Source: Ciconia boyciana (taxonomy: Eukaryota). Taken from it: a stretch of 64,000 bases of DNA. Positions 56,430 through 62,121 of this stretch are shown piece after piece. A program made the position numbers and the translations under genes. Below the pieces are notes generated by a model. That model was not told the origin of the DNA. It did not search any database and saw only the letters and a program-made list of their open reading frames with translations. Numbering within the stretch: position 1 is the first letter of the stretch; each line of letters begins with the position of its first letter. The stretch covers positions 319,423 through 383,422 of the forward strand of contig NC_132969.1 in NCBI RefSeq assembly GCF_034638445.1. The letters are read 5' to 3'.

Positions 56430-56677
56430 TCAGAGCCTCCGGATCTTCATCTCGCTCTTCTTGAGGGAGTAGTAGAAGCCCTTCCACTGGGCCCAGTTGA
56501 TGCCGTTGGCGTAGGAGAGGTGGGCGCCCCCCAGGTAGAAGCCGTTGAGGTTGGAGAAGTGGCAGCTCTTGAACCACCAGGCGCCGGAGGAGAGGGCGGC
56601 GCAGTTCTGGACGTAAAGGTCCTGGTCCCGGTCGAAGGTGGAGAATTTTTGACCGTTGTGGTAGCTGAGGGAATCGC
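56430..56677 (-). CDS. FReD (ficolin/angiopoietin-like fibrinogen C-terminal domain) gene, terminal coding exon
   Basis: Minus-strand acceptor ctccAG. Translation (G)[81 protein letters not shown] followed by TGA (plus-strand tca at 56430-56432). Compare ficolin [20 protein letters not shown]...[26 protein letters not shown]...[26 protein letters not shown]. Confidence 0.8.
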
Positions 56678-56689
56678 CTGGAGGATGGG

Positions 56690-57800
56690 GGAGGAGGAGA
56701 TGGGGGGCACGCGGGGCTTGCGGTGGCCTGGTGGCCCTCCATCGTGGCCTCCGTTGGCCTGGTGGCCCTCCCCATGGTTCACATTGGCTTGGTGGACCCC
56801 CATCGTGGCCTCCGTTGGCCTGGTGGCCCCTCCCCATGGGTGATGTTGGCCTGGTGGCCCCTCCCAATGCCCCACAGTGACCTGGTGGCCCTCCATCATG
56901 GCCTCTGTTGGCCTGGTGGCCCCTCCCCATGGCCCACGTTGGCCTGGTGGCCCCCCATCGTGGCCTCCGTTGGCCTGGTGGCCCCTCCCCATGGGTGATG
57001 TTGGCCTGGTGGCCCTCCATCATGGCCTCTGTTGGCCTGGTGGCCCCTCCCCATGGTTCACAATGGCCTGGTGGCCCCCCATCATGGCTTCCATTGGCCT
57101 GGTGGCCCCTCCCCATGTTTGATGTTGGCCTGGTGGCCCCTCCCCATGGCCCACAGGGACCTGGTGGCCCTCCATCATGGCCTCCGTTGGCTTGGTCTCC
57201 CCTCCCCATGGTTGATGTTGGCCTGGTGGCCCTCCATCATGGCTTCCGTTGGCCTGGTGGCCCTCCCCATGGCTCACATTGGCTTGGTGGCCCCCCATCG
57301 TGGCCTCCGTTGGCTTGGTGTCCCCTCCCCATGGCCCACATTGGCTTGGTGGCCCCCCATCGTGGCCTCCGTTGGCTTGGTGTCCCCTCCCCATGGCCCA
57401 CGTTGGCCTGGTGGCCCTCCATCATGGCTTCCGTTGGCCTGGTGGCCCCTCCCCATGGTTGATGTTGGCCTGGTGGCCCCCCATCGTGGCCTCCGTTGGC
57501 TTGGTGGCCCCTCCCCATGGCCCATGTTGGCCTGGTGGCCCTCCATCATGGCCTCCGTTGGCCTGGTGGCCCTCCCCATGGTTGAGGTTGGCCTGGTGAC
57601 CCTCCATCATGGCCTCCGTTGGCTTGGTGTCCCCTCCCCATGGCCCACGTTGGCCTGGTGGCCCTCCATCATGGCTTCCGTTGGCCTGGTGGCCCCTCCC
57701 CATGGTTGATGTTGGCCTGGTGGCCCTCCATCATGGCTTCCGTTGGCCTGGTGGCCCCTCCCCATGACCCACGGTGACCTCGTGTCCCCTCCCCATGCCC
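56690..57800. repeat. Minisatellite (ggcctccgttggcctggtggcccctccccatggttcacattggcttggtggccccccatcgtgg), first part of the FReD last intron
   Basis: Direct repetition. The minus-strand translation is GPPGQ-containing but is not a Gly-X-Y collagen repeat. Confidence 0.85.
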
Positions 57801-58500
57801 CTCCTTGACCTGCTGCCCCTCCCCATGGTTCACGTTGACCCATCTCCCTCTCCCCATTGGCCACCTTGACCCACAACCCCCTCCCCATTGGCTACCTTGA
57901 CCTGCTGCCCCTCCCCATTGGCCACCTTGACCCACAACCCCCTCCCCATTGGCTACCTTGACCTACAACCCCTCCCCATTGGCCACCTTGACCTGGTGCC
58001 GCTCCCCATGCCCCACCTTGACCCACAACCCCTCCCCATGCCCCACCTTGACCCACAACCCCTCCCCATTGGCTACTTTGACCCTCTCCCCCTCCCCATT
58101 GGCTACCTTGACCTGCTGCCCCTCCCCATTGGCCACCTTGACCCACAACCCCCTCCCCATTGGCTGCCTTGACCCACAACCCCTCCCCATTGGCTACCTT
58201 GACCTGCTGCCCCTCCCCATTGGCCACCTTGACCCACAACCCCCTTCCCATTGGCTACCTTGACCCACAACCCCCTCCCCATTGGCCACCTTGACCGGTG
58301 CCCCTCCCCATGCCCCACCTTGACCCACAACCCCTCCCCATTGGCTACCTTGACCTGCTGCCCCTCCCCATTGGCTGCCTTGACCCACAACCCCTCCCCA
58401 TTGGCCACCTTGACCCAATAACCCTCCCCACCCCCACCTTGCCCCACCTCCCCTTCCCCACCCCCACCTTCCCCTCCCCACCCTCCCCTCAACCTCCCCC
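57800..58500. repeat. About 31-bp minisatellite (cttgacccacaacccctccccattggctac), each unit with an ATTGG/CCAAT core
   Basis: About 20 iterations; the plus strand is C-rich. Confidence 0.85.
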
Positions 58501-58607
58501 CTCCCCTTCCCCTCACCCCGGCCTGCATTCCCCCCTCCCCTCCCCTCGCCCTCCCCGCCGCGGGGCCGCCGTGGGGCGGCCGTGGGGCGCCCCCCAAGCG
58601 TCCTCAC

Positions 58608-58790
58608 CCGCCCCGCCATCGACGAAGCTCCCCACGTGGAGGGTGTAGCCGTCCTCCTCGGCGCTGACGGCGTGGGGCGAGAGGGCGAAGGAGCCGTAGG
58701 TGGCGGCCGCCGTGTTGTTCTCAAAGTCCTCCAGCTCCACCCGCAGCTCGTAGCGGCCTTGCAGGGTCAGCAGGTGCAGGGCCTGCAGGC
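58608..58790 (-). CDS. FReD gene coding exon (penultimate)
   Basis: Minus-strand acceptor cacccccAG and donor GTGAGG. Translation (G)LQALHLLTLQGRYELRVELEDFENNTAAATYGSFALSPHAVSAEEDGYTLHVGSFVDGGA(G). Compare ficolin [56 protein letters not shown]. The exon is 183 nt with phases consistent with its neighbours. Confidence 0.8.
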
Positions 58791-58799
58791 CTGGGGGTG

Positions 58800-59760: not shown

Positions 59761-59799
59761 GGCGGGCCGAGGGGATGAGCTGGACGAAGGGATGGAGAG

Positions 59800-61780
59800 G
59801 AAGCAATGGGGGCTGACGGAGACCCAGGACTGGGGGGGTAACTGGGACATACTGGGGGAAACTGGGGGATACTGGGGGTAACTGTGCCATACTGGGGGAT
59901 ACTGGGGGATACTGGGAGGTACTGGGGGATACTGGGGGATCCTGGGGATACTGGGAGGTACTGGGAGGTGCTGGGAGGTGCTGGGGGGTACCTGTGCCAT
60001 ACTGGGGGTTAACTGGGAGATACTGGGGGATACTGGGAGGTACTGGGGGATCCTGGGGGATCCTGGGAGGTACTGGGGGATACTGGGGGATACTGGGAGG
60101 TACTGGGAGGTACTGGGGGATACTGGGAGATACTGGGAGGTGCTGGGGGGTACCTGTGCCATACTGGGGGGTTAACTGGGAGATACTGGGGGATACTGGG
60201 AGGTACTGGGGGATACTGGGGGGTACCTGTGCCATACTGGGGGGTTAACTGGGAGATACTGGGGGATACTGGGAGATACTGGGGGATCCTGGGGGATCCT
60301 GGGAGGTACTGGGGGATACTGGGAGGTACTGGGAGGTACTGGGGGATACTGGGAGATACTGGGAGGTGCTGGGGGGTACCTGTGCCATACTGGGGGTTAA
60401 CTGGGAGATACTGGGGGATACTGGGAGGTACTGGGGGATACTGGGGGGTACCTGTGCCATACTGGGGGTTAACTGGGAGATACTGGGGGATACTGGGAGG
60501 TACTGGGGGATCCTGGGGGATCCTGGGAGGTACTGGGGGATACTGGGGGATACTGGGAGATACTGGGAGGTGCTGGGGGGTACCTGTGCCATACTGAGGG
60601 GTTAACTGGGAGATACTGGGGGATACTGGGAGGTACTGGGGGATACTGGGGGATCCTGGGAGGTACTGGGAGGTGCTGGGGGGGTACCTGTGCCATACTG
60701 GGGGGTTAACTGGGAGATACTGGGGGATACTGGGAGGTACTGGGGGATACTGGGAGGTACTGGGGCAGGGATGAGCTGGGCAAGGGGATGAAGGGATGGG
60801 AGGTGATGGAGACCCAGGACTGGGGGGTAACTGGGACGTACTGGGGGTTAACTGGGAGATACTGGGGGCTACTGGGGGATCCTGGGGGCTACTGGGAGTT
60901 ACTGGGAGGTACTGGGGGATCCTGGGAGATACTGGGGGATACTGGGAGGTACTGGGAGGTACTGGGGGATACTGGGGGGGTACCTGTGCCATACTGGGGG
61001 TTAACTGGGAGATACGGGGGCTACTGGGAGGTACTGGGGGATCCTGGGGGATACTGGGAGGTACTGGGGGATACTGGGAGGTACTGGGGCAGGGATGAGC
61101 TGGGCAAGGGGATGAAGGGATGGGAGGTGATGGACACCCAGGACTGGGAGGGGGGGTAACTGGGATGTACTGGGGGTTAACTGGGAGATACTGGGGGATA
61201 CTGGGAGGTACTGGGGGATACTGGGGGGTACCTGTGCCATACTGGGGGTTAACTGGGAGGTACTGGGGGATACTGGGAGGTACTGGGGCAGGGATGAGCT
61301 GGGCAAGGGGATGAAGGAATGGGAGGTGATGGAGACCCAGGACTGGGGGGGGTAACTGTGCCGTACTGGGGGTTAACTGGGAGATACTGGGGGATACTGG
61401 GGGCTACTGGGGGCTACTGGGGGATACTGGGAGATACTGGGAGTTACTGGGAGGTACTGGGGGATCCTGGGAGATACTGGGGGATACTGGGAGGTACTGG
61501 GAGGTACTGGGGGATACTGGGGGGTACCTGTGCCATACTGGGGGGTTAACTGGGAGATACTGGGGGCTACTGGGAGGTACTGGGGGATACTGGGGGATAC
61601 TGGGAGGTACTGGGAGATACTGGGAGGTACTGGGGCAGGGATGAGCTGGGCAAGGGGATGAAGGGATGGGAGGTGATGGAGACCCAGGACTGGGGGGGGG
61701 GGGTAACTGTGCCGTACTGGGGGGTTAACTGGGGGCTACTGGGGGCTACTGGGGGCTACTGGGGGCTACTGGGTGGCCCT
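59800..61780. repeat. 12-mer family (gggatactggga / ggtactggggga) with about 250-300-bp higher-order repeat, FReD intron
   Basis: Direct repetition; ORF translations recur (e.g. 59994, 60229, 60366). Confidence 0.85.
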
Positions 61781-61793
61781 CACCGAGCCAGTA

Positions 61794-61890
61794 CTCGCCG
61801 TCGGCGCGCCCGAAGCCGAGCCGGTAATCGTTCCAACCCCGGAAAAAACTGACGGAGCCGTTGAAACGCTTCTGGAAAACCTGAAATTAT
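61794..61890 (-). CDS. FReD gene coding exon
   Basis: Minus-strand acceptor ataatttcAG and donor GTGAGG. Translation [32 protein letters not shown](G); compare ficolin [33 protein letters not shown]. The exon is 97 nt. Confidence 0.8.
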
Positions 61891-61966
61891 GGGGGGGGGG
61901 GGCAGAAGCTGGAATCAGGGGGTCCCCGGCGGGGGAGGGGCGGGGGAGGGGCGGGGGGAGGGGTAC

Positions 61967-62121
61967 CGTCCAGACGTGGCCCTGGGTGCTCATGTCGCAG
62001 TAGACGGGGAGCGGGGTCCCCCCCGCCCCGCTCGGGGACACCAAGTAGACGCCGTCGGCTCGGGCCCCCGGCGTAGACGTCCTGGCAGTCGCGGGGGACA
62101 GGGGGGGGGCGCAGAGGGGGG
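61967..62121 (-). CDS. FReD gene coding exon (start of fibrinogen domain) carrying an internal 1-nt frame shift
   Basis: Minus-strand acceptor tctcccccAG and donor GTACCC. One frame reads ...[19 protein letters not shown], then after a 1-nt frame slip in gggggcccgagcc it reads [33 protein letters not shown]. Compare angiopoietin RDCADVYQAG...SGIYTIY...VFCNMDVNGGGWTV and ficolin NCKDLLDRG...TIYLPD...VLCDMDTDGGGWTV. The exon begins in phase 2, so upstream exons exist (in repeats or beyond 64000). Confidence 0.65.

Follow-up and report, generated by a model that had tools for sequence, protein, structure and literature searches.

Exons 3-6 of a probable MFAP4 orthologue next to PRRT2 in the genome of the stork Ciconia boyciana

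Exon structure of the locus

We analyzed a stretch of 64,000 nucleotides from Ciconia boyciana (NCBI RefSeq assembly GCF_034638445.1, contig NC_132969.1, positions 319,423 to 383,422), referred to below as the window and numbered from its first letter. On the minus strand, near one end of the window, lie four exons that together encode a fibrinogen-related domain (FReD). A previous reading of the letters alone (the sequence-only reading) had assigned them to a ficolin- or angiopoietin-like gene. In contrast, our comparisons make it highly probable that they belong to the bird orthologue of MFAP4 (microfibril-associated glycoprotein 4), of which they would represent exons 3-6 of six, or the 3' four-fifths of the gene. 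Here, we describe the exon structure of this gene, its family identity, the conservation of its residues, the purifying selection acting on it, and its synteny across birds.

The first exon within the window, exon 3 (62121-61967, 155 nt), starts with a PLC sequence holding the equivalent of the human MFAP4 cysteine C34, and also encodes the sequence ARADGVYLV. Its acceptor AG lies at 62123-62122 and its donor GT at 61966-61965, after ...TGG ACG. The short intron 3 (61881-61966, 86 nt, phase 0) separates it from exon 4 (61880-61784, 97 nt), which holds the N-G-S sequon equivalent to that at N87. Intron 4 (58791-61783, 2993 bp, phase 1) is followed by exon 5 (58790-58608, 183 nt), which encodes LQALHLLTLQGRYELRVELEDFENNT...FVDGGAG and includes the N137-equivalent N-N-T sequon. 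After intron 5 (56678-58607, 1930 bp, phase 1) comes the last exon, exon 6 (56677-56430, 248 nt including the stop codon), which contains the Ca2+ site, the C199-C212 pair and the W235 motif, and ends in EMKIRRL followed by TGA. An ATTAAA polyadenylation signal on the same strand (56348-56353) is located 77 nt past the stop codon, just before a 187-bp satellite.

All boundaries of exons 3-6 are canonical AG/GT sites, and the intron phases match across the junctions. Once one frame break was repaired, the joined exons gave a product of 218 amino acids that matched the Pfam profile PF00147 with 240 bits (E = 2.6e-71) over profile positions 3-219 of 221 (217 covered), which is far beyond chance. 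The claim of the sequence-only reading that four minus-strand exons encode a complete C-terminal FReD is thus borne out, and all of the peptide stretches quoted in it were recovered from the minus strand by three-frame translation of positions 56300-62700. The human MFAP4 gene has six exons (PMC9265350), and at the window locus the FReD is likewise spread over the last four of six exons. In an exon alignment, the exon boundaries and phases were identical in the window and in cuckoo and pigeon MFAP4, these two birds making up the phase comparison. Furthermore, the joined exons were colinear with an intron-less contig of 1122 nt from another bird's public sequencing run (87% over 674 nt), and the alignment had zero gaps at any exon junction. 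Such a match indicates that the exon joins of the window model, which had been proposed earlier, are used in a relative. The feature is real and correctly delimited.

Assignment to MFAP4

Among solved structures, the best relative of the window product was human MFAP4 (PDB 7ZMK and 8UN7), with a score of 409 bits (E = 6e-122) and 172 of the 216 aligned positions identical (80%). The other human families scored considerably lower: FIBCD1 reached 263 bits, ficolin-2 224, ficolin-1 207, tenascin-R 202 and ANGPTL2 188, and the structures of angiopoietin-like (ANGPTL) and angiopoietin (ANGPT) proteins as a whole fell between 138 and 188 bits. In a database of 5.8 billion proteins, almost every named protein among the 120 top matches was MFAP4 or MFAP4-like. 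The product was 94% identical to the annotated protein of the cuckoo (Cuculus canorus, XP_053908983.1), 93% to that of the pigeon (Columba livia, XP_064900379.1) and 92% to that of the goose (Anser cygnoides, XP_066840289.1), and a partial curlew protein, covering 80% of the query, was 96% identical. In the same search, the MFAP4 proteins of turtle, lizard and mammals ranked after the birds, at ≈80% identity. The gap in score to the other FReD families and the bird MFAP4s at the top of the matches point to an MFAP4 orthologue, and not to a ficolin or an angiopoietin-like protein. (The assignment is based on this comparison of scores and identities rather than on a formal tree; a literature search found no published MFAP4/FIBCD1 phylogeny.)

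In the sequence-only reading, the gene was instead a ficolin- or angiopoietin-like lectin of innate immunity, new to a neighborhood of the human 16p11.2 type. The domain is indeed a FReD, located at the C-terminus and with the same cysteine pattern as in the ficolins and angiopoietin-like proteins, and the ficolins are the third-closest human family. It may also be counted in favor of an immune role that the mfap4 genes of teleosts are expressed in macrophages (PMC9265350). However, even the best ficolin or ANGPTL score is little more than half that of MFAP4, the identity to annotated bird MFAP4 is 92-94%, and other birds share the same neighborhood (see below). The proteins also differ ahead of the domain, where ficolins have a collagen-like region and ANGPTL proteins a coiled coil. 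Full-length bird orthologues of the window gene are 249-266 amino acids long and consist of a signal peptide, a short GQPI...C... peptide and the FReD, with ≈35-45 residues ahead of the latter. No collagen-like Gly-X-Y region was found in these orthologues or in the 1.9 kb upstream of exon 3 within the window, and none of the full-length orthologues had the long N-terminal coiled coil typical of angiopoietins and ANGPTL proteins. Thus, of the 5' part that had been suggested, the signal peptide is present in the full-length bird orthologues, but the collagen-like or coiled-coil part is not. At the level of sequence comparison, the structure scores and database matches already refute the lectin assignment, to which we give practically no credence.

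FIBCD1, the next-closest human FReD family, resembles the window gene in its FReD fold, its Ca2+ site residues and its tetrameric assembly. However, it scores 146 bits below MFAP4, and it is a type II membrane protein with a coiled-coil stalk, whereas the bird orthologues of the window gene carry a cleavable signal peptide. Human MFAP4 (also known as MAGP-36) shares with the window gene the arrangement in which a single FReD makes up nearly the whole protein, but differs from it in that the window gene has a G+C content at third codon positions of 0.92 and introns filled with satellites. The gene itself is already known, since annotated bird MFAP4 genes in public genomes share its structure and neighbors. 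Like the window copy, the annotated bird genes are flanked by PRRT2 and/or CDIPT and have GC-rich, repeat-filled introns; however, the array lengths in the introns differ, and only the window copy has deletions of 1 and 2 nt in exon 3.

Conserved residues and selective constraint

Over exons 4-6 (519 nt), the ratio of nonsynonymous to synonymous substitution rates (dN/dS) was 0.047-0.098, at a dS of 0.36-0.51, in comparisons with cuckoo, pigeon, goose and ostrich. These exons are under strong purifying selection. The residues that had been listed in the cryo-electron microscopy (cryo-EM) study of human MFAP4 (PMC11091212) were mapped onto the window product. Retained from the human protein are C70, the C199-C212 pair, the N87 and N137 sequons and W235, together with the inner Ca2+ site (S186, T187, D191, Q192 and D193) and the peripheral site (D134, E136 and N138). 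The interface residues, which include intra- and inter-tetramer contacts, were kept at 14 of 15 positions, the sole change being N152 to H, and the salt-bridge residues R94-E158 and R105-D159 were all conserved. The C34-equivalent cysteine is encoded in the PLC sequence at the start of exon 3, in a frame set by the conserved phase-1 acceptor. It is present in 15 sauropsid orthologues; in all good models, a cysteine precedes the DC of the domain by 6-10 residues. For the C41-C70 pair, C70 is present and C41 is encoded only in the frame that is reached by repairing two indels.

The integrin-binding motif RGD, described for the N-terminal peptide of mammalian MFAP4, was absent from all 16 bird, turtle and alligator MFAP4 sequences examined (among proteins P0001-P0145); the exon that would hold it lies outside the window. 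The MFAP4 proteins of teleosts also lack RGD (PMC9265350). The motif is therefore a mark of mammalian function and not of membership in the MFAP4 family.

The reading frame of exon 3 and completeness of the gene

In the assembled sequence, three-frame translation of the minus strand places RDCQDVY and the downstream ARADGVYLV in different frames, a difference not mentioned in the sequence-only reading. Alignment of exon 3 with cuckoo, pigeon, goose, ostrich, eagle and the bird transcript contig located two indels. At the first, a run of nine C (62101-62109, minus strand), the window lacks 1 nt relative to the orthologue frame, which takes the reading from frame 2 (PLCAPP) to frame 1. At the second, a run of five G (62065-62069, minus strand), it lacks 2 nt relative to cuckoo, pigeon, goose, ostrich and the bird transcript contig. 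The net change is -3 nt, and the assembled open reading frame (ORF) stays open via the conserved phase-1 acceptor. In this assembled reading, the conserved stretch of exon 3, which in other birds follows the pattern ...C..PP.PRDCQDV[YHF]AGGAR.DG..., is replaced. We considered an alternative acceptor inside exon 3 (ctgccag|G), which would avoid the frame break, and rejected it: its use would remove the conserved RDC cysteine and would not match the exon start in the orthologues. In the chicken (Gallus gallus), the models P0126 and P0127 contain the exon 3 peptide twice, a degenerate copy (YLVYPMGPGLPILIYGNTITDGHVWMV) preceding the normal one, which suggests a local duplication of exon 3 or an assembly repeat.

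In bird orthologues, exon 1 encodes the start of the signal peptide, and exon 2 encodes its remainder and the GQPI segment and ends in phase 1; the two exons sit 0.9-6.4 kb upstream of exon 3. Searches of positions 62094-64000 by tblastn with five bird N-termini and by motif scans for exons 1-2 returned only proline-rich noise. Between exon 3 and the end of the window, there are 1.9 kb of uninterrupted 9-bp satellite with no candidate exon, so that exons 1-2 must be located past position 64000. The sequence-only reading had correctly described this upstream part as not resolved in the window.

Several observations weigh against an intact MFAP4 gene whose exon 3 was merely misassembled. With exons 1-2, and thereby the signal peptide and GQPI segment, outside the window, the gene may not be complete, and there was no Ciconia MFAP4 protein among the database matches or clusters examined. 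As assembled, exon 3 lacks the C41-equivalent (RDC) cysteine, and the net effect of the indels is exactly -3 nt, as it would be in a real compensated frameshift. Finally, ≈1 kb of TAOK2 exons and ≈0.5 kb of CDIPT exons, used as controls from the same window, are free of frame errors, which argues that the assembly is not generally error-prone.

Frame breaks in exon 3, a lack of exons 1-2 in the 1.9 kb of pure satellite upstream and the missing database entry for this species could all be explained by a decaying pseudogene or by a truncated duplicate of MFAP4 without its 5' exons. However, exons 4-6 have no stop codon or frame break, the splice sites are canonical in eight of eight cases, the polyadenylation signal is present, dN/dS is 0.05-0.10 and the net frame is kept in exon 3. 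Moreover, exons 1-2 of pigeon and ostrich are found 4-6 kb upstream, so that their absence from 1.9 kb is to be expected, and the copy occupies the orthologous position beside PRRT2 and CDIPT. A pseudogene or truncated copy is therefore very improbable. Annotators may have treated the stork locus as defective, or may have missed it.

A less remote alternative is that the gene is MFAP4 and that the indels are real, forming a compensated, frame-preserving frameshift with loss of C41, which would leave C70 unpaired. The sum of the two deletions, the unbroken ORF between exon 3 and the stop codon and the clean TAOK2 and CDIPT control exons are consistent with such a change, as is the eagle model, in which part of the same stretch is also read in the +1 frame. 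In the eagle in question (Morphnus guianensis, locus L005 11100-11440), MFAP4 exon 3 reads DCQ-TSSPRG-ARTDG. However, since the invariant exon 4 in the same eagle assembly is also frameshifted, without compensation, the oddity in its exon 3 is likely to be an error too. In the goose (Anser cygnoides, locus L003, about 22130), there is a frame shift at a G run in PRRT2.

On the whole, assembly errors in homopolymer length probably account for the exon 3 indels better than a real variant does. Both sites are homopolymer runs (C9 and G5) in sequence of ≈85% G+C, and frameshifts at G/C runs recur in the eagle exon 4 and goose PRRT2 assemblies. The skipped frame still encodes the intact conserved peptide, identical to that of the ptarmigan; with this frame unchanged, a real change would have to be very recent. 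Both cysteines are retained in all 15 well-modeled sequences from other sauropsids, and among the sauropsid and mammalian sequences examined, none but that of the window lacks C41. We thus regard real indels as unlikely, though well short of negligible. It is slightly more doubtful still that the stork expresses an MFAP4 in which 13 new residues replace the conserved stretch, the universally conserved C41-C70 disulfide of the FReD is lost and C70 is free.

Satellite arrays

Tandem arrays were located with Tandem Repeats Finder and occupy introns 2, 4 and 5 as well as the space downstream of the gene. The partial intron 2 (62122-64000, minus strand) consists of the 9-bp array (TGGGGGACA, about 212 copies), which runs uninterrupted from 62123 to the window end. 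Intron 4 contains a 10-bp array (ACTGGGGGAT, about 174 copies; 59841-61635) and, at its 3' end directly upstream of exon 5, a G-rich 12-bp array (GGGTGTGGGGCA on the plus strand of the window; 58793-59766). Intron 5 contains 31/62-bp and 30/91-bp arrays (56724-58430). The earlier description of introns holding satellite arrays of 2-5 kb was therefore accurate as to the arrays but slightly generous as to their size, since the introns themselves measure 2-3 kb. Between the 3' end of MFAP4 and the 5' region of PRRT2, the space is filled by a satellite with a 187-bp unit (54258-56338).

Some of these repeats have counterparts in other birds. The 12-bp motif is also found at the 3' end of MFAP4 intron 4 in eagle (L005 12296-12507), cuckoo (L001 12213) and pigeon (L002 18119-19474). 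Translated matches to the 187-bp satellite were seen downstream of pigeon MFAP4 (L002 25100-28900), which indicates that this intergenic satellite family is shared between bird orders. The 31/62-bp array of intron 5 (56724-57828) has related units in cuckoo intron 5 (L001 12746-13108), with 45-60% identity in translation. When other birds were searched for the exact units of the 10-bp and 31-bp satellites of the introns, allowing ≤3 mismatches, the results were mostly negative. Translated matches nevertheless exist, so that these arrays are related but have diverged between birds.

Repeats also occur elsewhere in the window. The 12-bp motif also fills the PRRT2 intron (50444-52622). An island of lower G+C content (0.51) in a TAOK2 intron (12000-16500) is made up of ≈186-bp tandem units with repeated ORFs of 61 amino acids (…NLLMVVAPSQDLLKVLNPGF…), and another TAOK2-intron array (28500-31100), which translates as GAEITQGWWD…, has related units at the corresponding place in cuckoo TAOK2 (L001 20600-21400).

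Neighboring genes and synteny

The identities of the neighboring genes rest on window translations checked against Pfam, PDB and the protein database; human PRRT2, TAOK2 and CDIPT sequences served as tblastn probes only. The two PRRT2 exons that encode the CD225 domain (PF04505, 70.7 bits) lie on the minus strand at ~52901-52803 and ~49241-49109 (span 49109-52901), and match the annotated Ciconia boyciana PRRT2 with 100% identity, splice join included. The 3' end of MFAP4 thus faces the 5' end of PRRT2 on the same strand, in the head-to-tail arrangement that had been described from the sequence. The annotated stork PRRT2 product is 101 amino acids long, far shorter than mammalian PRRT2; a proline-rich N-terminal exon may be unannotated or hidden in the GC-rich region at 53000-54200.

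The other two genes are on the plus strand. TAOK2 (2783-40201) has intact kinase-domain exons and an AATAAA signal at 40196, and its best match among solved structures was TAO2 (678 bits, compared with 605 for TAO3). CDIPT (40660-45393) was identified by six exon matches and the PF01066 domain, and has an AATAAA signal at 45388. Within what is otherwise a TAOK2 intron, there is an exon-like ORF (25485-25775, plus strand; …FRLFPKTNKGGFRS) that is conserved with cuckoo and appears to resemble the alternative, membrane-associated C-terminus found in the long isoform of TAOK2.

The same surroundings were found in other birds. In the cuckoo, MFAP4 converges with CDIPT, which is followed by TAOK2 on the same strand as CDIPT. 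MFAP4 is followed by CDIPT in pigeon and eagle, and by PRRT2 exons on the same strand in goose. In the ostrich, the next gene, also on the same strand, encodes 476 amino acids. On the upstream side, the head-to-head neighbor in the eagle is SRRM2 (L005 3700-6064, minus strand; cwf21 domain, 59.6 bits), a gene located at 16p13.3 in human. Genes encoding 2137-2211 amino acids, the size of eagle SRRM2, are located upstream of MFAP4 in cuckoo and ostrich. SRRM2 is therefore expected just past the end of the window, as in the eagle, with MFAP4 between SRRM2 and the PRRT2-CDIPT-TAOK2 group. The location of MFAP4 beside PRRT2, CDIPT and TAOK2, genes of the 16p11.2 type, is the normal arrangement in the birds sampled, which range from waterfowl to Neoaves, and is not peculiar to this genome.

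Outside birds, the neighbors are different. In the lizard (Zootoca), MFAP4 lies between a trypsin-like gene and an RNF112-like gene (with RING and GBP domains); RNF112 is the neighbor of MFAP4 at 17p11.2 in human. A trypsin-like gene is the only neighbor within 10 kb of turtle MFAP4. In a paleognath, MFAP4 lacks these reptile neighbors; the comparison of PRRT2, CDIPT and TAOK2 covers goose, cuckoo, pigeon and eagle. Human and lizard MFAP4 thus share RNF112 (and, for human, MAPK7) as a neighbor, whereas the bird genes are flanked by SRRM2 and PRRT2. In mammals and Xenopus, MFAP4 adjoins MAPK7 (PMC3202601). Since the lizard keeps a neighbor of the human type, the move of MFAP4 looks bird-specific, that is, a rearrangement in the bird lineage and not a new gene. 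The sequence-only reading was therefore right that no FReD gene would be expected in the 16p11.2 neighborhood by comparison with human and lizard, but as an anomaly of this genome the observation does not stand, since other birds share it.

Implications for the biology of MFAP4

Human MFAP4 assembles from dimers into tetramers and, with Ca2+, into octamers, and binds fibrillin and tropoelastin in the formation of elastic fibers (PMC11091212, PMC9265350). By homology, the stork product would be a secreted glycoprotein of the extracellular matrix, composed of a short N-terminal peptide and a single FReD. If it behaves as cryo-EM and biochemistry have indicated for the human protein, its monomers would pair via the N-terminal cysteine, and the pairs would form tetramers through the R94-E158 and R105-D159 salt bridges. 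Ca2+ bound in the S186/T187/D191/Q192 loop would then lead the tetramers to form octamers, which may bind fibrillin and tropoelastin and help to build elastic fibers. Of this scheme, our data show the conservation of the residues; expression and this biochemical function in Ciconia boyciana are inferred.

As an ordinary MFAP4 orthologue that is possibly missing from, or marked as defective in, the stork gene set, the gene has little import beyond annotation. The breakpoint marked by the change in MFAP4 synteny probably arose on the stem of birds or of archosaurs. As for the exon 3 indels, they illustrate how homopolymer runs within very GC-rich microchromosome genes can cause a conserved gene to be hidden or corrupted in an assembly. 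If, on the other hand, the indels were real, they would provide a natural test of whether the C41-C70 disulfide is dispensable or whether the nearby C34-equivalent cysteine can substitute in it. For the family as a whole, the sauropsid proteins lack the RGD motif, on which most of the mammalian MFAP4 disease biology rests; judging from these sequences, RGD-integrin signaling may not apply to sauropsid MFAP4.

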